Origin: Adineta vaga
Taxonomy: Eukaryota; Animalia; Rotifera
DNA: 64,000 nt
Reading direction: 5' to 3'
Assembly (NCBI GenBank): GCA_021613535.1
Contig: CP075492.1
Span: 14,119,769 to 14,183,768, forward strand
Shown: positions 2,119 through 60,058 of the stretch, one piece after another
How the letters are laid out: every line of letters begins with the position of its first letter
Numbering within the stretch: position 1 is the stretch's first letter
Made by a program: the position numbers and the translations under genes
The notes under the pieces: generated by a model
Told to the model about the DNA's origin: nothing
The model's database searches: none
The model's input: only the letters and a program-made list of their open reading frames with translations

Positions 2119-4671
2119 ATGATATCTTTTGCTTGTATATTACTTATGTTGATAATTATGCTGTACGATTTACATAGTACGGTTACTTATTCAATGAGTA
2201 ATTTTGCATCAGAAAATTTAACTAAAATTAATCCTCGTTATGGAAGAGTCGACAATCCGAATGTTGCTCTCAAAGATGATTGTGCATTGCGAGCTTTTAC
2301 CATTGAAATGGCTGGTTATATAGCACCATCATTTTGGAAAAATAATTGGACGGCACTTAGTGAAAGTGCCTTTCAAATGAATGAATGTAATGGAACGAGT
2401 TATCATACCTCTAGATCGTCTAAAGCTCGGCAACCATTTCGAACGCCAGAAAGAATAAAAACAAATGTTTGTTATCGCTCGGTATTTGTAAATGGTGAAT
2501 CAGGTGATGATCGATCGAATGGAACATTCGAAAAGCCACTGAAAACGATACAAGCAGCTGTATCGTTGACACGAACTCTTCGCATTGCTTACGGTAGAAA
2601 CAATACAATGTGCATTATCCTGCGAGTAGGAACGTATTATTTGGGCACGAATGCTACTTCTTCATCGAGTAGTCAAATTGGTGCAATTGCATTAACAAGC
2701 GATGATAGTAATCTCGTGATTGAAAACTATCAAAATGAGCGTGTCGTAGTAAGCGGTGGTACTTTATTGCAATTACAATGGTCTGTTTATCAGAAAACAT
2801 CGACTGGTAGTACCATTATGAAAGCTCGAATACCAGCATATGTTGATCTCAATCAGTTTAATGAATTATATATCGATGGGAAAAGAGCTATTGTAGCTAA
2901 ATATCCTAATGGTGATCCTTCTACTCAAGGTCTGTATGCTAAAAACCCGGGATTTTGTTTCGAATGGCAAAAATGGTGGGGTCCTAGTTTCAATCGAACC
3001 GTAGAACTTCATGTACAAGAACCTTATCGCAATGGTACAGTATTCACAAACTTTCAACTTGGTATTGGTGGTGGTGCTTCTGTCTTTAATCCACCTACTA
3101 ATTTTTGGAGTACGGCTTCACCACCTGCAGGTGACAATTATGTCACGACTCGTGGTATTACTGTGAATAAAGACACATTGCCTCGTATAGCTAATTGGAC
3201 TAAACCAACGAATGGTATTGTACATACTTTTCAAGGAGAATATTGGGGTAGTTGGATATTTGAAATAGCATCGGTGAATAGCACTGAATATACGATTATG
3301 TTTGGTCGAGGAGGATTTCAAGAAGCGCGTGGTTTAAGTTGGGGTGGAGCATTCTATGTTGCGAATATATTCGAAGAACTCGATTCACCTAACGAATGGT
3401 TTCTAGACAAAGATACTCGTACTCTCTTTTTTATGCCCAATGAAACGATGCCAGAGACATTTATAGCCAGTCAAATTCCTTGTCTCATCTCTTTGCGTGG
3501 CAATAGTATTAATGATCCTATCCAGAATGTTTGGATACAAGGTTTGATCCTTTCAGAAACAACTAATACATATATGAGAGACTACATGGTACCGGGTGGT
3601 GGTGATTGGGCCGTTCATCGTGGTGGTACTATATATTTAACCAACACGAAAGATATTACTCTTGCACACAATTTATTTACACAATTAGGTAGCAATGGTG
3701 TCGCTTTAATTGATTATAATGATGGTACTTCTATTATTATGAATGAATTTGTCTGGTTGGCTGATTCAGCTATTATTCTTGTTGGTAGTACAAATGGAAT
3801 CGATGGTTTTAGTGTGGCTAGTCAACCTGCCAATACACTTATCCAATCAAATCTAATACATGAGACAGGCATCTATGTAAAACAATCATCTCCAATATTA
3901 ATTGCTGTAAGTAGAAGCGTGTCTATTATTGGTAATCTTATGTTCAATATACCGCGAGCAGCCATCAATATCAATGATGGCTTCTATGGTAATCATACAC
4001 TGAGTTGGAATGTGATGTTTAATACTGTACGAGAAACAAGTGATCATGGACCTATCAATACATGGGATCGTCAACCATTTTTGAGTGATGCTTCGCAATC
4101 TGGTATACCTTCACTATGGCAACATTACAGTTATATTCATCATAATACTATCTTCAATAATTATAATGCTTTATGGCCTATTGATCATGATGATGGCAGT
4201 TGTTTTTATGAAGATTCTTATAATTTTCATGTTTATGGTGGAAAGAAAAATTTTCTCGGTCACTCAAAATCAGATCATCATCAAATTTATGTCTATTCAG
4301 ATATGAATAAAGGTGATTATGGTAGTAATGTATGTCTAGGTTTTTATGCACCTAGACGAGGTTTTAGTGGTTGGGATGAAATTTGGGTTCAAAATACGTG
4401 CATACTTTACAAAATACCAATTCCTTACATTATCGGTAATTGTGAAACAACCGATCTATTTGTACCGTATTTAGCAAATAATAAAATATATATTCCAAAT
4501 GGTACTGAAGTGATATTTACATGTAATATTAATGGTACAAGTACAAAACTTAATTTAGAACAATGGCAATCATATGGAGTAGATATTGGTACTAGTATTT
4601 CTTCGACACCTGATGTTCAAACAATTATTGAATGGGGTCGTGAAATGTTGCAACCAACAACAACAGAGTAA
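2119..4671 (+). CDS. secreted right-handed parallel beta-helix (pectate-lyase-fold, PbH1-repeat) protein, 850 aa, single exon
   Basis: ATG at 2119 and TAA at 4669-4671. There is a hydrophobic N-terminus (MISFACILLMLIIMLY). PbH1-like repeats are present (NLFTQLGSNGVALIDYNDGTSIIMNEFVWLADSAIILVGSTNG; IHETGIYV…IIGNLMFN). Many N-x-S/T sites occur. It is a paralogous fold to the gene at 52964..54431. Confidence 0.75.
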   Translation: MISFACILLMLIIMLYDLHSTVTYSMSNFASENLTKINPRYGRVDNPNVALKDDCALRAFTIEMAGYIAPSFWKNNWTALSESAFQMNECNGTSYHTSRSSKARQPFRTPERIKTNVCYRSVFVNGESGDDRSNGTFEKPLKTIQAAVSLTRTLRIAYGRNNTMCIILRVGTYYLGTNATSSSSSQIGAIALTSDDSNLVIENYQNERVVVSGGTLLQLQWSVYQKTSTGSTIMKARIPAYVDLNQFNELYIDGKRAIVAKYPNGDPSTQGLYAKNPGFCFEWQKWWGPSFNRTVELHVQEPYRNGTVFTNFQLGIGGGASVFNPPTNFWSTASPPAGDNYVTTRGITVNKDTLPRIANWTKPTNGIVHTFQGEYWGSWIFEIASVNSTEYTIMFGRGGFQEARGLSWGGAFYVANIFEELDSPNEWFLDKDTRTLFFMPNETMPETFIASQIPCLISLRGNSINDPIQNVWIQGLILSETTNTYMRDYMVPGGGDWAVHRGGTIYLTNTKDITLAHNLFTQLGSNGVALIDYNDGTSIIMNEFVWLADSAIILVGSTNGIDGFSVASQPANTLIQSNLIHETGIYVKQSSPILIAVSRSVSIIGNLMFNIPRAAININDGFYGNHTLSWNVMFNTVRETSDHGPINTWDRQPFLSDASQSGIPSLWQHYSYIHHNTIFNNYNALWPIDHDDGSCFYEDSYNFHVYGGKKNFLGHSKSDHHQIYVYSDMNKGDYGSNVCLGFYAPRRGFSGWDEIWVQNTCILYKIPIPYIIGNCETTDLFVPYLANNKIYIPNGTEVIFTCNINGTSTKLNLEQWQSYGVDIGTSISSTPDVQTIIEWGREMLQPTTTE

Positions 4672-5101: not shown

Positions 5102-5301
5102 TCTCCCCCGTGAAATATTTTGTATATTTAAAAGTATACATTTAGTAGGAGAGGAAAAAGAACATGTGCAAATGAATTCTAAAAACATTTCAACTTTTTG
5201 ATCGTTATGTTGTTCAAAAACCTTCATAATTTTCAGTTCATTAAATTATAGTAGAACTCGTATAAAAAATTTGTTTATTACAAGATTCGTGTTTCGTCAG
5301 A

Positions 5302-7103
5302 TTAAGACAAAGTAACAGAAACCATCCGACTTGCTACAGTTCCAGTTACTTTCAAACAAAATCGAATCGAATAACTTTGTCCGGTTGTTACGAAAAACGA
5401 CTGACTGATTTCATCAGCAACGTTTGCACACCAACTGTCTACACGGTAAGAACCAGTACGAGCTAAACCGCCCATAACTTGACTACCACTAGAGAATTGA
5501 CAAGCTCCATTTGGTATTGATCTTGTCCAACCAGGTGAGAAAGAGCCGTATTCAAAACCACCGTTGACTAATAATTCTGTAGTTCCATTAGTTACTGTTA
5601 CGTCATCTAAATACCAATGATCAATATTACTTCGAAATTGAAATACGAGGTTAACAGAGCCTGTAGTACTAGCTATCCATTCAGCATAACAACAAGTATA
5701 TGAAGTAAATGAAAATGTTGTTGAAGAAAATAAACTGGAAGATCCCACATTTATAGGAGTACCACATGGATTTGCAGTAGTAGTTGCTATTAAACAAGAA
5801 TGATGGAAAAATAAAGTAAAAGTTTTCAAAAAAAAATGACTAATTTACTCGCTATTTTACTAACTACAGAAAATAAACAATAGAAAGATTTTTAAGAAAA
5901 ACAATTCAATCATTTATCCGAATATTTACCAGAGTCTTTTTTTTCTACTGAATTTTGCTGTCTCTTTAATATTATCAGGTACTAAAATTGTTGACTTCAT
6001 TTTATCATAATGTAGATAATCTATGTTAGTCCTATATTTCTGGAATATGAATACGTAGAAATCATCATTATCACTAATTAAAAAGCTTCGACAACTAAGT
6101 TAAAATATGAACAGATGGGAAAGTGACATTTTCTCATGTAAATGTAAATAGATATCAACGACTTACATGTTGATGAAGTGCTGCTAGTCGATGATGATGT
6201 TGATGTGGAACTAGTAGTTGTTACGGATGCTATGAATTATAGAAATCTTCGGATGTAGATATATCAATTTGAAAAAGAAATATATACTTGTTGTTGTAGT
6301 AACAGTAGAAGTGGTCTCTGTTGTAGTAGTTGAAGTAGTTTCCGATGTGGTAGTAGATGTGCTCGTTGTTGTCGTGGTAGTTGCAGAGGTCGTGGTAGTC
6401 GTTGTTTCTGATGTAGTGCTTGTTGCTTTGTAATGATAAAAATAATAAATATAATTTTTTAGATGAAAATTTATAATTACTTGTGCTTGATGTAGTTGTC
6501 GTAACTGTTGTGATTGTCCTCTTGACAAAGAGACCTGCAAGTATACCAGCAAGACCAATGGCGAGTAATATAGCAATGATTATTGATGCAAGACAACAAT
6601 ATCGTGATCGAAGTCGACGGACTTTACGATTAAGATTAGGGTTCATATTTTCTTTCGTGCCTGTTTGGTTGAATCTGATGGTTTTAACTTTACTAAAACT
6701 TGATTTTGATCGCTTATGTTTGAGTCGTTTTGTTTTTCGTAATTGTTGTTCTTTAGACTGAGCACTACTATTGGAAAACGATTTTTGCGTGTTTGTCGAT
6801 GTTTTAGTTTCGCATATCGATCTGGATGGTATTGACAATGGAAGAGTCTGTAGAGGCAATATATAATGATTAATTGTAAACATTCATATTCAATAGTAAA
6901 ACAACTCCTACTTTGGATGAATCCATGAATTGATTAGAATTTCGTGGTAATATATTTGCATGAAAATCAAACTTCTTGTTCTGATATGATGATTGTAATC
7001 CAGAATTGATCGATGATGGTACAGATTGAGTTAGAAGAGGCGAAAATAACTTCACTCTATCTTGGCTCGATGGAAGTATTCGAGGCACTATACTTTCAAC
7101 CAT
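5302..7103 (-). CDS. multi-exon gene: single-pass TM protein with Thr/Ser-rich mucin-like stalk and C-terminal CBM4_9 (galactose-binding-like) domain
   Basis: Proposed exons on the minus strand: ~7103..6912 (ATG at 7103; donor AAA|GTAGGA), 6847..6481 (basic cytoplasmic tail KHKRSKSS, TM CCLASIIIAILLAIGLAGILAGLFV, donor CAA|GTAATT), 6425..6288 (TTSETTTTTTSATTTTTTSTSTTTSETT), 6229..6167 (all Ser/Thr codons, donor T|GTAAGT) and 5786..5302. All splice phases are consistent. Introns are 64, 55, 58 and ~380 bp. The terminal 'ORF' 5302..5829 has no ATG (the listed start is TTG) but carries the CBM_4_9 signature LLVNGGFEYGSFSPGW. Confidence 0.55.
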
Positions 7104-19597: not shown

Positions 19598-22500
19598 TTC
19601 AGTTGTTGTGTGATAGAGGTTGATGTGATTGAATGTTGATGTTGGTATGGAAGTGGGAAAGAGAGTTGAATAGAAGAATTATGAGAGATGTTCAGTTGTT
19701 GTGTGATAGAGGATGATGTGATTGAATGTTTATGTTGGTATGGAAGTGGGAAAGAGAGTTGAATAGAAGAATTATGAGAGATGTTCAGTTGTTGTGTGAT
19801 AGAGGATGATGTGATTGAATGTTGATGTTGGTATGGAAGTGGGAAAGAGAGTTGAATAGAAGAATGATGAGAGATGTTCAGTTGTTGTGTGATAGAGGAT
19901 GATGTGATTGAATGTTGATGTTGGTATGGAAGTGGGAAAGGGAGTTGAATAGTCGATTCGTGGTAGATGTTCAGTTGTTGTGTGATAGAGGATGATGTGA
20001 TTGAATGTTGATGTTGGTATGGAAGTGGGAAGGAGAGTTGAATTTCGGAGTGGTGGTAGATGTTCAGTTGTTGTGTGATAGAGGATGATGTGATTGAATG
20101 TTGATGTTGGTATGGAAGTGGGAAAGAGAGTTGAATAGAAGAATGATGAGAGATGTTCAGTTGTTGTGTGATAGAGGATGATGTGATTGAATGTTGATGT
20201 TGGTATGGAAGTGGGAAAGAGAGTTGAATAGAAGAATTATGAGAGATGTTCAGTTGTTGTGTGATAGAGGATGATGTGATTGAATGTTGATGTTGGTATG
20301 GAAGTGGGAAAGAGAGTTGAATAGAAGAATGATGAGAGATGTTCAGTTGTTGTGTGATAGAGGATGATGTGATTGAATGTTGATGTTGGTATGGAAGTGG
20401 GAAAGAGAGTTGAATAGAAGAATGATGAGAGATGTTCAGTTGTTGTGTGATAGAGGATGATGTGATTGAATGTTGATGTTGGTATGGAAGTGGGAAAGAG
20501 AGTTGAATAGAAGAATTATGAGAGATGTTCAGTTGTTGTGTGATAGAGGATGATGTGATTGAATGTTGATGTTGGTATGGAAGTGGGAAGGAGAGTTGAA
20601 TAGAGGAATGATGAGAGATGTTCAGTTGTTGTGTGATAGAGGATGATGTGATTGAATGTTGATGTTGGTATGGAAGTGGGAAAGAGAGTTGAATAGAGGA
20701 ATTATGGTAGATGTTCAGTTGTTGTGTGATAGAGGATGATGTGATTGAATGTTGATGTTGGTATGGAAGTGGGAAAGAGAGTTGAATAGTGGAGTAGTGG
20801 TAGATGTTCAGTTGTTGTGTGATAGAGGATGATGTGATTGAATGTTGATGTTGGTATGGAAGTGGGAAAGAGAGTTGAATAGAGGAATCGTGGTAGATGT
20901 TCAGTTGTTGTGTGATAGAGGATGATGTGATTGAATGTTGATGTTGGTATGGAAGTGGGAAAGAGAGTTGAATTTAGGATTGGTGGTAGATGTTCAGTTG
21001 TTGTGTGATAGAGGATGATGTGATTGAATGTTGATGTTGGTATGGAAGTGGGAAAGAGAGTTGAATAGAAGAATTATGAGAGATGTTCAGTTGTTGTGTG
21101 ATAGAGGATGATGTGATTGAATGTTGATGTTGGTATGGAAGTGGGAAGGAGAGTTGAATTTCGGAGTGGTGGTAGATGTTCAGTTGTTGTGTGATAGAGG
21201 ATGATGTGATTGAATGTTTATGTTGGTATGGAAGTGGGAAGGAGAGTTGAATTTCGGAGTAGTGGTAGATGTTCAGTTGTTGTGTGATAGAGGATGATGT
21301 GATTGAATGTTGATGTTGGTATGGAAGTGGGAAAGAGAGTTGAATTTCGGAGTGGTGGTAGATGTTCAGTTGTTGTGTGATAGAGGATGATGTGATTGAA
21401 TGTTGATGTTGGTATGGAAGTGGGAAAGAGAGTTGAATAGAAGAATGATGAGAGATGTTCAGTTGTTGTGTGATAGAGGATGATGTGATTGAATGTTGAT
21501 GTTGGTATGGAAGTGGGAAGGAGAGTTGAATAGAAGAATGATGAGAGATGTTCAGTTGTTGTGTGATAGAGGATGATGTGATTGAATGTTTATGTTGGTA
21601 TGGAAGTGGGAAAGAGAGTTGAATAGAAGAATTATGAGAGATGTTCAGTTGTTGTGTGATAGAGGATGATGTGATTGAATGTTGATGTTGGTATGGAAGT
21701 GGGAAAGAGTTGAATAGAAGAATGATGAGAGATGTTCAGTTGTTGTGTGATAGAGGATGATGTGATTGAATGTTGATGTTGGTATGGAAGTGGGAAAGGG
21801 AGTTGAATAGTCGATTCGTGGTAGATGTTCAGTTGTTGTGTGATAGAGGATGATGTGATTGAATGTTGATGTTGGTATGGAAGTGGGAAGGAGAGTTGAA
21901 TTTCGGAGTGGTGGTAGATGTTCAGTTGTTGTGTGATAGAGGATGATGTGATTGAATGTTGATGTTGGTATGGAAGTGGGAAGGAGAGTTGAATAGAAGA
22001 ATGATGAGAGATGTTCAGTTGTTGTGTGATAGAGGATGATGTGATTGAATGTTGATGTTGGTATGGAAGTGGGAAAGAGAGTTGAATTTAGGAGTCTTGA
22101 GAGATGTTCAGTTGTTGTGTGATAGAGGATGATGTGATTGAATGTTGATGTTGGTATGGAAGTGGGAAAGAGAGTTGAATTTCGGAGTGGTGGTAGATGT
22201 TCAGTTGTTGTGTGATAGAGGATGATGTGATTGAATGTTGATGTTGGTATGGAAGTGGGAAAGAGAGTTGAATAGAAGAATTATGAGAGATGTTCAGTTG
22301 TTGTGTGATAGAGGATGATGTGATTGAATGTTGATGTTGGTATGGAAGTGGGAAGGAGAGTTGAATTTCGGAGTGGTGGTAGATGTTCAGTTGTTGTGTG
22401 ATAGAGGATGATGTGATTGAATGTTTATGTTGGTATGGAAGTGGGAAGGAGAGTTGAATTTCGGAGTAGTGGTAGATGTTCAGTTGTTGTGTGATAGAGG

Positions 22501-25048
22501 ATGATGTGATTGAATGTTGATGTTGGTATGGAAGTGGGAAGGAGAGTTGAATTTCGGAGTGGTGGTAGATGTTCAGTTGTTGTGTGATAGAGGATGATGT
22601 GATTGAATGTTGATGTTGGTATGGAAGTGGGAAAGAGAGTTGAATAGAAGAATTATGAGAGATGTTCAGTTGTTGTGTGATAGAGGATGATGTGATTGAA
22701 TGTTGATGTTGGTATGGAAGTGGGAAAGAGAGTTGAATAGAAGAATTATGAGAGATGTTCAGTTGTTGTGTGATAGAGGATGATGTGATTGAATGTTTAT
22801 GTTGGTATGGAAGTGGGAAGGAGAGTTGAATTTCGGAGTGGTGGTAGATGTTCAGTTGTTGTGTGATAGAGGATGATGTGATTGAATGTTGATGTTGGTA
22901 TGGAAGTGGGAAAGAGAGTTGAATAGAAGAATGATGAGAGATGTTCAGTTGTTGTGTGATAGAGGATGATGTGATTGAATGTTGATGTTGGTATGGAAGT
23001 GGGAAGGAGAGTTGAATAGAAGAATGATGAGAGATGTTCAGTTGTTGTGTGATAGAGGATGATGTGATTGAATGTTTATGTTGGTATGGAAGTGGGAAAG
23101 AGAGTTGAATAGAAGAATTATGAGAGATGTTCAGTTGTTGTGTGATAGAGGATGATGTGATTGAATGTTGATGTTGGTATGGAAGTGGGAAAGAGAGTTG
23201 AATAGAAGAATGATGAGAGATGTTCAGTTGTTGTGTGATAGAGGATGATGTGATTGAATGTTGATGTTGGTATGGAAGTGGGAAAGGGAGTTGAATAGTC
23301 GATTCGTGGTAGATGTTCAGTTGTTGTGTGATAGAGGATGATGTGATTGAATGTTGATGTTGGTATGGAAGTGGGAAGGAGAGTTGAATTTCGGAGTGGT
23401 GGTAGATGTTCAGTTGTTGTGTGATAGAGGATGATGTGATTGAATGTTGATGTTGGTATGGAAGTGGGAAGGAGAGTTGAATAGAAGAATGATGAGAGAT
23501 GTTCAGTTGTTGTGTGATAGAGGATGATGTGATTGAATGTTGATGTTGGTATGGAAGTGGGAAAGAGAGTTGAATAGTGGAGTCTTGAGAGATGTTCAGT
23601 TGTTGTGTGATAGAGGATGATGTGATTGAATGTTGATGTTGGTATGGAAGTGGGAAAGAGAGTTGAATTTCGGAGTGGTGGTAGATGTTCAGTTGTTGTG
23701 TGATAGAGGATGATGTGATTGAATGTTGATGTTGGTATGGAAGTGGGAAAGAGAGTTGAATAGAAGAATTATGAGAGATGTTCAGTTGTTGTGTGATAGA
23801 GGATGATGTGATTGAATGTTGATGTTGGTATGGAAGTGGGAAGGAGAGTTGAATTTCGGAGTGGTGGTAGATGTTCAGTTGTTGTGTGATAGAGGATGAT
23901 GTGATTGAATGTTTATGTTGGTATGGAAGTGGGAAGGAGAGTTGAATTTCGGAGTAGTGGTAGATGTTCAGTTGTTGTGTGATAGAGGATGATGTGATTG
24001 AATGTTGATGTTGGTATGGAAGTGGGAAGGAGAGTTGAATTTCGGAGTGGTGGTAGATGTTCAGTTGTTGTGTGATAGAGGATGATGTGATTGAATGTTG
24101 ATGTTGGTATGGAAGTGGGAAAGAGAGTTGAATAGAAGAATTATGAGAGATGTTCAGTTGTTGTGTGATAGAGGATGATGTGATTGAATGTTGATGTTGG
24201 TATGGAAGTGGGAAAGAGAGTTGAATAGAAGAATTATGAGAGATGTTCAGTTGTTGTGTGATAGAGGATGATGTGATTGAATGTTTATGTTGGTATGGAA
24301 GTGGGAAGGAGAGTTGAATTTCGGAGTGGTGGTAGATGTTCAGTTGTTGTGTGATAGAGGATGATGTGATTGAATGTTGATGTTGGTATGGAAGTGGGAA
24401 AGAGAGTTGAATTTAGGAGTCTTGATAGATGTTCAGTTGTTGTGTGATAGAGGATGATGTGATTGAATGTTGATGTTGGTATGGAAGTGGGAAAGAGAGT
24501 TGAATTTAGGAGTCTTGAGAGATGTTCAGTTGTTGTGTGATAGAGGATGATGTGATTGAATGTTTATGTTGGTATGGAAGTGGGAAGGAGAGTTGAATTT
24601 CGGAGTGGTGGTAGATGTTCAGTTGTTGTGTGATAGAGGATGATGTGATTGAATGTTGATGTTGGTATGGAAGTGGGAAAGAGAGTTGAATAGTCGATTC
24701 GTGCTAGATGTTCAGTTGTTGTGTGATAGAGGATGATGTGATTGAATGTTGATGTTGGTATGGAAGTGTGAAAGAGAGTTGAATTTAGGAGTCTTGATAG
24801 ATGTTCAGTTGTTGTGTGATAGAGGATGATGTGATTGAATGTTGATGTTGGTATGGAAGTGGGAAAGAGAGTTGAATTTAGGAGTCTTGAGAGATGTTCA
24901 GTTGTTGTGTGATAGAGGATGATGTGATTGAATGTTGATGTTGGTATGGAAGTGGGAAAGAGAGTTGAATTTAGGAGTGGTGGTAGATGTTCAGTTGTTG
25001 TGTGATAGAGGATGATGTGATTGAATGTTGATGTTGGTATGGAAGTGG
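19598..25048. repeat. tandem satellite array: ~58 copies of a 93-bp monomer with a ~1.5-kb (16-monomer) higher-order repeat
   Basis: Monomer: gatgttcagttgttgtgtgatagaggatgatgtgattgaatgttgatgttggtatggaagtgggaaagagagttgaat plus a 15-nt variable cassette (agaagaattatgaga, agaagaatgatgaga, ttcggagtggtggta, agtcgattcgtggta, ttaggagtcttgaga and others). Monomer starts at 19690, 19783, 19876 and 19969 give a 93-bp period. The diagnostic variant agtcgattcg recurs at ~19951, 21808, 23297 and 24688, and the run 21421-22200 is repeated at 22921-23700. Confidence 0.95.
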
Positions 25049-25701
25049 CAGCCAAAGATGGATTACATCCTCATGTATGCCTATGCGAGATGCATTAACT
25101 TGTTCAATGAACATTCTGCGACTGAGGATAACACTCTTTGTAAATCGATTCGTTGGATGATAATTTAATATTCTTAAAATAAAAAATGACTGGAAACCAG
25201 AAAAGGGACACAGCGCGTTAATGCGAGCAAGCGCAAGCGCTTGCGAGCACGCTCCGAAAAACCGTCGATAGACGGCGCTAATTTACGGTGAATTAATTTT
25301 TTCCCTTATAAACATAAATACTTATATACGTAGCCACTGCAAAAGGACACAGAATAATGAAACATTTCAAGTGATACTGAGATATATATCCTTTCGCAAA
25401 CGCACCCGCTATGAATACCGTTCTGCTCACACTTTGCAAGGATTGCTTAATCTCAATCTACCATACAATTGCCACGGGATGTTGCTTTAACTGCACATCT
25501 GCTTCGAAATATAAACTGAACAAATCCTTTATACACATATTTTACGCATATTGAAAAATCACGATCGCCCTCTGATCTGCGCATCTAAAACGAAGAAATC
25601 CTCTTTCTGCACAATGCATTCAAACCAAGGCAACTTTAAACTGCACTATAAAGCACTCGAAAAGGTTCCCTTTATCACCCATACAATCACACTTAAGGTT
25701 T

Positions 25702-59081: not shown

Positions 59082-60058
59082 TTATCCACTTTGTGTCGTA
59101 TTTGTTTGCCAAACAATTGACTTAGTTTTATCAGTCCATATTAGATTTCCTGAATCTAATATTTCGAAACAGAAAGGAGTTCCACTACCATTATTATAAA
59201 TCGCAGCTGTCCATAGTACTTGCATAGTACCCAATGCATAAACAACTAAATTACGATCATACTGTAATGCAAGAAAACATGAAATTGATGTTGATATTTG
59301 ATTTGCAGTCCAGAGTGTTGTTGAAGTAACATTTCCATAGCTGTAAGCACTATAAACACCGAATTGATTATTTAACATACCGACTGCATAAGTTTGTGAA
59401 GTTGGTGAATAGATAAATTCATCATTATAAAAGTATATACTGTTATTATATACGCAAACGGACGACGGAGGAGCTACAACATAGAAAAAAACGAAAAATG
59501 ATCAGTAGTCATTTACATAATTCATCTACATTTCTCAAACCTGTCGTAGTTGTTGCAGTTGTTGTGCTTGTAGCTAGAAAACAAATGAGAAAGAATTTCT
59601 ACTTTAATATACTCAATCATCCTTCTTTTACTTGCAGTAGTACTTTTCGTTGTCGTGCTAGTGAAATTTATAGTAGTAGAAGTCATTACTATAAAGAAAA
59701 AAGGACACATGTATTATTTTCTTCGGAGTAGCTTACAGTTGATTGATGCCGTAGTTGAATCTGTTCCTGTTGACAAGAAATTAGAAAATATACATTCATT
59801 AATTTTATCTGATTCTCTGAATTAAACTTTTTGCTTACCTGATCTTTGCCATAAAACAACAACAACAGCCAAAACATTTCCTGCTACTAATAAACCCAAA
59901 ACTAATCCAATTACAAACATTGTTTTTGCTGAAGTAGTTGATTGTTTCGTTGTTGATTGTATTGTAGTAGAATCATGATCAACACTATCTACTTCAGACA
60001 ACCCATGAGTACTAGCATCCAAGGTTTGTAATTCATAGCCATTTTCTAACGTATTCAT
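59082..60058 (-). CDS. multi-exon gene: N-terminal TM anchor, Thr-rich mucin-like stalk and C-terminal bulb-type (B_lectin) mannose-binding lectin domain
   Basis: ATG at 60058. Exon 1 runs to ~59839 with donor G|GTAAGC and contains the TM FVIGLVLGLLVAGNVLAVVVVL. Short exons follow, with Thr-rich stretches (TSTTINFTSTTTKSTTA, TTSTTTATTTT) and ~55-60-bp introns. The terminal exon ends at 59082 (…NLVVYALGTMQVLWTAAIYNNGSGTPFCFEILDSGNLIWTDKTKSIVWQTNT…), the B_lectin signature. Internal exon boundaries are approximate. Confidence 0.55.

Follow-up and report, generated by a model that had tools for sequence, protein, structure and literature searches.

A circularly permuted CBM_4_9-type module on the terminal exon of a putative membrane-anchored, mucin-stalked protein of Adineta vaga

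The window analysed here, i.e., the whole 64,000-nucleotide stretch of contig CP075492.1 of the bdelloid rotifer Adineta vaga (positions 14,119,769 to 14,183,768), is AT-rich (~31% GC), with short introns. On its minus strand, positions 5302..5829 hold an open reading frame (ORF) of 175 amino acids (aa), which has TTG as the start codon and is without ATG. The question that this locus raises is whether such an ORF is a gene in its own right and what kind of domain it encodes. It is the last exon of a five-exon gene located at 5302-7103 on the minus strand (gene 1, locus tag I4U23_015379), and the tip domain of the gene 1 protein is a circular permutant of a CBM_4_9-type jelly roll (CBM, carbohydrate-binding module). 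The initial annotation had assigned the ORF to CBM_4_9; the LLVNGGFEYG motif is indeed present and the homology to CBM_4_9 stands, whereas co-linear membership in this family does not, since the domain is a circular permutant.

The ORF had also been taken for the terminal exon of a gene encoding a transmembrane (TM) helix and a mucin-like stalk, with splice junctions at 6912^6847, 6481^6425, 6288^6229, and 6167^5786. All four junctions are GT-AG at exactly these positions, and the spliced product coincides with the public annotation. The features of gene 1 are as follows:

6912..7103, minus strand: exon 1, with the start codon (7103) and codons 1-64 of the cytoplasmic tail; donor GT at 6911
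6481..6847, minus strand: exon 2, the remaining basic tail, the RKVRRLRSR-YCC juxtamembrane cluster, the TM helix, and the start of the Ser/Thr stalk; ends in phase 1
6524..6601, minus strand: predicted TM signal-anchor, aa 147-172, YCCLASIIIAILLAIGLAGILAGLFV, from Kyte-Doolittle values and flank charges
6288..6425, minus strand: exon 3, a 138-nt Ser/Thr exon of symmetric phase 1-1
6167..6229, minus strand: exon 4, a 63-nt Ser/Thr exon of symmetric phase 1-1 (20 Ser/Thr and one Val)
5302..5786, minus strand: terminal exon 5, the permuted CBM_4_9-like beta-sandwich and the stop codon; acceptor AG at 5788-5787; the real part of the 175-aa ORF
5274..5279, minus strand: polyadenylation signal AATAAA, 23 nt past the TAA stop of gene 1

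The introns are 64, 55, 58, and 380 nt in length, each of them begins with GT and ends with AG, and their phases are 0, 1, 1, and 1; the incoming phases of exons 1-5 are 0, 0, 1, 1, and 1. The GC content of the exons is 0.34-0.43, compared with 0.11-0.27 for the introns, and between the ATG at 7103 and the stop upstream of it, the frame contains no other ATG. The spliced coding sequence is 1245 nt long and encodes 414 aa without an internal stop; the conceptual protein is letter-for-letter identical to GenBank UJR11198.1 (I4U23_015379, "hypothetical protein", 414 aa). For the public A. vaga annotation, funannotate, PASA, Augustus, and GeneMark were used together with RNA-seq (PMC8494291).

The upstream exons had been described as encoding a basic tail, one TM helix, and Ser/Thr stretches, and the 414-aa product has just this composition. 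The basic cytoplasmic tail comprises 146 aa, and residues 1-155 contain 29 Lys and Arg versus 7 Asp and Glu. No N-terminal hydrophobic signal was found (Kyte-Doolittle maximum of 0.42 within the first 40 aa), and the sole strongly hydrophobic segment is aa 147-172, YCCLASIIIAILLAIGLAGILAGLFV, with a 19-aa Kyte-Doolittle maximum of 2.88. It is preceded by NRKVRRLRSR-Y-C-C; the charge of the 15-residue N-terminal flank is +6, and that of the C-terminal flank is +2. From the positive-inside rule we infer that the product is a type II signal-anchor protein with the N-terminus inside and the module outside. The stalk consists of 86 aa, 87% of which are Ser or Thr. The 63-nt exon, initially described as purely Ser/Thr, is nearly so, with 20 Ser/Thr codons and one Val codon. 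A six-frame scan of the window found no other strongly Ser/Thr-rich coding stretch. The module itself spans N259 to S414.

Where the TM helix begins on its cytosolic side, an Arg cluster followed by two to six Cys (RRRR…CC…CCCCC) can be noted in gene 1 (6481-6601) and in the relatives P0026, P0027, P0028, P0031, P0036, and P0040. This is the only conserved portion of the front half, and no conservation of the cytoplasmic tail beyond the TM region was found among the relatives. The cluster looks similar to juxtamembrane palmitoylation clusters, and its cysteines may be palmitoylated.

A Pfam search with the gene 1 protein and with its C-terminal 160 aa gave no match, even at E ≤ 10. The closest relatives score 13.6-26.5 bits against CBM_4_9 (PF02018), the highest value belonging to P0006 (26.5 bits), and they match only positions 2-84 of the 136 positions of the profile, after which the protein soon ends. 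The score against NTTRR-F1 (NCBIfam) is 19.9 bits versus a cutoff of 70. A profile built from the rotifer modules was searched against 1.84 billion representative proteins and gave 2921 matches at E ≤ 1e-3. Among them are bacterial proteins with tandem units, which are bona fide CBM_4_9 proteins (42-92 bits to PF02018) and also match DUF642, NTTRR-F1, and choice-of-anchor C; P0033 reaches 92 bits over three units, each spanning profile positions 2-129. The rotifer profile aligns contiguously across the boundaries of these canonical units (in P0033, profile positions 27-165 lie on residues 231-357), and in arrays of the P0033 type, the match of the first unit is limited to the second half of the rotifer profile, and that of the last unit to its first half. 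The cross-boundary alignment together with the partial matches of the first and last units is the signature of circular permutation.

The reverse comparison was made with a canonical-unit profile of 132 positions, for which 50 canonical units from 24 proteins were used. Rotifer modules in their native order match it in two swapped pieces, positions 83-132 (residues 10-60) followed by positions 1-72 (residues 68-145); in P0018, the same pieces lie at residues 10-60 and 68-144. When the modules were re-permuted in silico, 24 of the 25 proteins matched the canonical-unit profile from end to end (1-132), and the re-permuted gene 1 module did so with 62.8 bits. In Pfam, the re-permuted modules gave only sub-threshold matches to CBM_4_9 and DUF642, several of which spanned the artificial junction. 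The two halves of the gene 1 module are located as follows:

5593..5745, minus strand: first half of the module, the canonical C-terminal part (profile 83-132, ...WYLDDVTV)
5341..5571, minus strand: second half of the module, the canonical N-terminal part (profile 1-72, LVNGGFE...SIRFCLK)

Read from these alignments, the module is shown to run from the canonical C-terminal strands (...W-Y-x-D-D-V-S-V) through a short linker to the N-terminal part (N-G-G-F-E ... F-W-L-K) and the closing strand VSVTLS. The permuted 'CN' pattern was found in 121 of the 223 relatives fetched. Standard domain searches miss the module because it is circularly permuted.

Structural comparisons were also carried out. 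The best match of the family profile in the PDB is 2xom, a 152-aa CBM of an endo-beta-1,4-galactanase (E 1.8e-6), with the halves in swapped order. A single-sequence PDB search with the module returned only chance matches to nanobodies (E ~0.09), and no solved structure with the chain order of the module was found. The AlphaFold2 (AF2) model of the module had a mean pLDDT (predicted local distance difference test) of 69.5 with 18 sequences in the alignment; with 53 sequences, the pLDDT was 85.4 and the predicted TM-score (pTM) was 0.83, and all 155 residues form one sandwich of ~11 strands. The AF2 model thus shows a beta-sandwich of the jelly-roll type.

The best explanation overall, and in our judgement a likely one, is that gene 1 encodes a membrane-anchored, mucin-stalked protein with a permuted CBM_4_9-like tip on a phase-1 terminal exon. 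Such a protein would insert as a type II signal-anchor surface glycoprotein, and its Ser/Thr stalk would be O-glycosylated into an extended rod. Mucin domains usually extend by ~0.25 nm per residue; since the stalk has 86 aa, the rod would be ~20 nm in length. It would hold the beta-sandwich away from the membrane, where the latter would bind a glycan or other extracellular ligand, and the protein would act as a cell-surface lectin or an adhesion/recognition molecule.

Several points weigh against this picture. The gene 1 protein fails every curated domain threshold, including the PF02018 gathering cutoff of 25.9 bits. Foldseek, a sequential aligner, found no PDB match for either of the AF2 models at E ≤ 0.001 (TM-score ≤ 0.43); this null result fits a permuted jelly roll and is not positive evidence for the permutation. 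The orientation of the gene 1 protein was derived from charge counts and the Kyte-Doolittle heuristic, not from TMHMM, SignalP, or another trained predictor. The gene 1 junctions rest on the public annotation and on comparative conservation. A crude census covered the 33 fetched relatives in which the module is preceded by 60 or more residues: 18 have a TM-like segment, 14 have a Ser/Thr-rich one, and 8 have both, and many models in this census are poor or visibly truncated. As for the bacterial origin proposed below for the module, it rests on similarity scores, not on phylogeny, and other eukaryotes were not systematically excluded.

Carbohydrate binding by the gene 1 module is what its sequence relatives suggest: all those that can be named are carbohydrate-binding modules, namely CBM_4_9, DUF642, and the galactanase CBM 2xom, and the neighbouring analogous gene 2 (59082-60058, described below) presents a genuine lectin on a stalk of this type. 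On both of these grounds, it seems rather unlikely that the architecture is right and the tip binds something other than carbohydrate (a protein, a collagen-like matrix, a metal, or itself by self-association in a surface coat), which would make the protein a structural component of the glycocalyx or cuticle and not a lectin. This alternative can point to the fact that, in bacteria, the domain is carried by adhesins, one of which its source labels 'fibronectin-binding autotransporter adhesin', and that no sugar-binding residues were identified in the module. Taking the gene 1 and gene 2 proteins together, it is reasonable to suppose, in line with the initial annotation, that they may be O-glycosylated, bind carbohydrate, and play a role in the glycocalyx or in pathogen recognition.

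Two other explanations concern the order of the module. It is quite improbable that the tip is an ordinary co-linear, divergent CBM_4_9 module whose upstream 70 residues are a linker or an extra small domain. The NGGFE motif is certainly present in the gene 1 module, P0006 scores 26.5 bits against the cutoff of 25.9, and both P0054 and P0006 carry precomputed PF02018 matches; however, the Pfam match stops at ~84 of the 136 profile positions, the relatives' proteins end ~5 residues later, the canonical C-terminal strands including the W-x-x-D-D-V-S-V signature sit upstream of NGGFE, and AF2 packs all 155 residues in one sandwich. There is also very little to recommend the idea that the module was cut as a slice from a former tandem array and is now decaying, i.e., two half-domains in a non-functional gene remnant. 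Across Adineta and Rotaria, the module has retained the same boundaries, with N/D-P-C at its start and VTLS at its end, as well as 10 invariant residues; the gene 1 reading frame is uninterrupted, its splice sites are clean, and a poly(A) signal is present; the single-domain AF2 model is confident; and bacteria use the permuted unit stand-alone, at the N-terminus behind a signal peptide (P0133, P0149). All this speaks against decay, although a C-half followed by an N-half is the order expected from a slice across two tandem units and arrays of canonical units are common in bacteria.

The assignment of the ORF to gene 1 depends on the acceptor at 5786, for which comparative evidence is available. 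The module has 17 close homologues (45-59% identity), mostly short ORFs called on metagenome contigs. They agree from "ATTTxNPCGTP" to the C-terminal "SVTLS", and upstream of this stretch they are unrelated to one another; the conserved sequence sets in precisely at the acceptor proposed for gene 1. In the locus L001, the acceptor (ttttaacag|CT GCT ACT ACC GTA AAT CCA TGT) is in phase 1, five codons ahead of N-P-C. In L005, the Adineta ricciae gene for P0032, the terminal exon likewise enters in phase 1, five codons ahead of D-P-C, and is preceded by Ser/Thr mini-exons of 30 and 33 nt in phase 1-1. The position and phase of the intron are thus conserved in three loci, since the acceptors of the window, L001, and L005 coincide.

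One may ask whether the 175-aa ORF could be a small gene of its own, initiated at a non-ATG codon and unrelated to the upstream Ser/Thr and TM stretches, but this possibility is effectively refuted. In its favour, a frame of 175 codons runs without interruption at 5302..5829, equivalent ORFs have repeatedly been called as stand-alone proteins on metagenome contigs, and an A. vaga paralogue (I4U23_004618) is annotated as a stand-alone module. Against it, the ORF contains no ATG, and its first 14 codons (MKTFTLFFHHSCLI) have no counterpart in the homologues, all of which differ from one another ahead of the acceptor. A polypyrimidine-AG acceptor in phase 1 is found at an identical codon position in each of three loci, splicing yields exactly the public model UJR11198.1, and the host genome is eukaryotic, with introns of 50-65 nt.

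The public model of the paralogue just mentioned (P0205), which lies on another chromosome, has 166 aa, consists of the terminal-exon module alone, and starts with 'MYICQTATTPTPPC…'. It is probably a truncated gene model produced by the same mistaking of an exon for an ORF. For annotation, the locus illustrates how the terminal exon of a eukaryotic gene can be taken for a self-contained ORF, an error repeated by metagenome callers and in I4U23_004618. The last intron of gene 1 (5787-6166) has 380 nt compared with 55-64 nt for the other three; its counterpart is 123 nt long in L005 and ~1 kb long in L001. No extra Ser/Thr exon was found inside 5787-6166 in a six-frame scan for Ser/Thr-rich coding stretches.

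The plan of gene 1 is repeated in annotated relatives from Adineta steineri, A. ricciae, Rotaria magnacalcarata, R. socialis, and Rotaria sp. Silwood1/2: a long basic tail, RRRR, a Cys-rich TM start, a Ser/Thr run, the module, and VTLS. All of these annotated relatives are "unnamed" or "uncharacterized". In the window, L001, and L005, the bdelloid module is one terminal exon with phase-1 entry five codons before N/D-P-C, and it ends in ...VTLS-stop. The front ends joined to it are mostly a TM helix with Ser/Thr mini-exons; there are also a PAN/apple-like exon (P0229) and a GEVED domain (P0197). In L001 (4601-6597), the phase-1 terminal exon is joined via the ~1-kb intron to a signal peptide and a PAN/apple-like Cys-rich exon. 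Apparently, the module has been shuffled as an exon, because the front in L001 is PAN/apple-like and not TM-mucin. A tblastn search of the window with both tip domains (those of genes 1 and 2) and the N-terminal tail detected no further copies.

The best non-rotifer matches to the module are bacterial domains with the same permuted order. Bacterial Ig-repeat/RTX adhesins and autotransporters carry a single permuted unit N-terminally (P0088, P0106, P0109, P0121, P0133, and P0149), and these adhesin N-termini match the rotifer profile in one piece, linker included, with 87-102 bits. Single canonical units are located between a signal peptide and a PEP-CTERM anchor in P0233 and P0244, and they match the rotifer profile in two swapped pieces. 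The order, the linker, and the end points of the rotifer module resemble those of the bacterial permuted domains, which suggests that it was imported already permuted. Judging from these similarities, the module probably entered the bdelloid lineage from bacteria in the permuted state and then spread by exon shuffling. The full scenario is put forward more tentatively: the permuted CBM_4_9-type domain may have arisen in bacteria as the tip of giant adhesins, been passed by horizontal gene transfer (HGT) to a bdelloid ancestor, and become a mobile phase-1 terminal exon on TM-mucin, PAN, and other fronts, giving lineage-specific stalked surface receptors that are invisible to curated libraries. 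This is a testable case of a probable bacterial domain import followed by exon shuffling.

Two long proteins would bear on the question of where the permutation arose. P0124 (1157 aa) has a C-Full-N pattern, i.e., two permuted units in tandem, and P0046 (2203 aa) has 13 canonical units; the amino-acid composition of both is like that of AT-rich genomes.

When the module is compared with the jelly-roll units of bacterial surface proteins (PF02018 CBM_4_9, NTTRR-F1, and choice-of-anchor C), the shared motifs NGGFE..., G-x-Y, Q-x-F, Y-x-[LV]-S-F-W-L, and W-x-x-D-D-V-S-V can be noted. All positions of the canonical CBM_4_9 profile are represented in the module, and the beta-sandwich is common to both; however, the halves of the module are swapped, its host is an animal, and it is encoded by one spliced terminal exon. 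The N-terminal domains of bacterial giant adhesins share the permuted order with it, and the linker (DDVSVxN-GTx-L-x-NGGFE) and end points are similar. In both the bacterial adhesins and the rotifer proteins, the domain is placed at the distal end of a long surface-exposed stalk. The bacterial carriers, which are secreted or located in the outer membrane, contain Big_13/Big_6, RTX, or autotransporter parts and have the domain at the N-terminus, whereas the rotifer carriers have a eukaryotic TM anchor and a mucin stalk, with the domain at the C-terminus.

The galactanase CBM (PDB 2xom/2xon, from an arabinogalactan endo-beta-1,4-galactanase) is the best PDB sequence match over the NGGFE...FW half. 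It is canonical in order, and its last strands with D-D match the first half of the rotifer profile weakly and in swapped position. No sequence relationship (4-9% identity) was found with concanavalin-A-type legume lectins, the permuted 1,3-1,4-beta-glucanase (1ajo), or the CBM21 permutant CP90 (PMC3511584). Natural and engineered circular permutations of beta-sandwich lectins and CBMs have precedents, including ConA-type lectins and the engineered CBM21 (PMC3511584). Animal type II or single-pass mucin-stalked surface lectins and adhesion molecules have the same plan, in which a cytoplasmic tail and a single TM helix are followed by a Pro/Thr/Ser stalk with the ligand-binding domain at its far end, whereas neither a permuted CBM-like module nor the GNA bulb lectin of gene 2 is among the usual animal lectin folds. 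This is not a new kind of system: both mucin-stalked surface lectins and permuted beta-sandwich lectins have precedents.

For curation, a sizeable group of proteins is missed by Pfam and NCBIfam owing to circular permutation, and a dedicated model would annotate hundreds of rotifer proteins and bacterial adhesins. The gene models are already public and both families are unnamed; what seems to be new is the circular permutation and the description of the family. A single survey of rotifer lectins was found (PMC8878817), in which proteins had to lack TM regions and neither PF01453 nor PF02018 was searched; for bdelloid biology, genes 1 and 2 add two more membrane-anchored lectin-like families, which that survey excluded by design.

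The second gene, at 59082-60058 (gene 2, I4U23_015396), lies ~53 kb away and had been proposed to have a sister architecture. The TM anchor, the Thr/Ser exons, and the lectin exon were all recovered, and the model agrees with the public annotation. Its exons on the minus strand are 60058-59839, 59766-59737, 59688-59632, 59573-59541, and 59473-59082, which make 732 nt and 243 aa; the protein is letter-for-letter identical to UJR11215.1 (I4U23_015396, 243 aa). Both UJR11198.1 and UJR11215.1 are annotated as "hypothetical protein" on one 20.35-Mb chromosome. A literature search on the locus-tag prefix I4U23 returned no expression data tied to either gene. The features of gene 2 are the following:

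59839..60058, minus strand: exon 1, an acidic 46-aa N-terminus and the TM helix (59849-59920); ends in phase 1
59541..59766, minus strand: stalk region, three symmetric 1-1 Thr/Ser mini-exons of 30, 57, and 33 nt with their introns
59082..59473, minus strand: terminal exon, phase 1, GNA-type bulb lectin; QYDRNLVVY at 59264-59238

The B_lectin call made for gene 2 is supported at the family level by PDB lectin matches and by orthologues that pass PF01453. The gene 2 protein itself scores 23.6 bits against Pfam B_lectin PF01453 (E 7.5e-5, positions 1-75 of 105), below the cutoff of 32.4. It matches the GNA-type lectins 3a0c (E 7.5e-6), 1jpc (8.5e-5), and 1xd5 (gastrodianin, 4.4e-4), as well as pyocin L. 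The mannose-binding QxDxNxVxY motif is intact once, as QYDRNLVVY (aa 184-192), while the motifs of the other two subdomains are degenerate (LNNQFGVYS and LDSGNLIWT); compared with GNA-type PF01453 lectins, gene 2 thus has one of the three sugar-binding motifs intact and is membrane-anchored on a Ser/Thr stalk. It has 51 bdelloid homologues, most of which pass PF01453 and carry the UniRef name 'Bulb-type lectin domain-containing protein'; several have the same TM and Ser/Thr front. No homology between the gene 1 and gene 2 proteins is detectable. The two genes share only their construction, which is a TM exon ending in phase 1, Ser/Thr mini-exons of phase 1-1, and a phase-1 terminal exon with the distal domain.

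Several other features of the window can be described. An intronless ORF of 850 aa at 2119-4671 on the plus strand is convergent with gene 1 and ends 630 bp from its 3' end; only weak matches to GH141_M and DUF1565 (right-handed beta-helix) were found for it. Its exact product was not found in the protein collection, so its public model must differ. An intronless gene of the beta-helix, carbohydrate-active-like kind beside a lectin-like gene would be a typical candidate for HGT in bdelloids. The two large ORFs flanking gene 1 show no homology and are unrelated to each other.

At 19598-25048, there is a tandem array of a 93-bp unit (58.6 copies, 94% matches, no indels) with a GC skew of ~0.92. 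The unit corresponds to 31 codons, and its minus strand reads as a Ser/Thr/Pro-rich peptide (…TSIPTSTFNHIILYHTTTEHL…). The frame is broken by stops, and the longest ORF has 163 aa (24564-25055). A giant mucin gene at 20-25 kb, suggested by the strong GC skew, was therefore rejected, the region being the 93-bp tandem array without a continuous ORF. This array may represent either a satellite or a repetitive coding region that has decayed.

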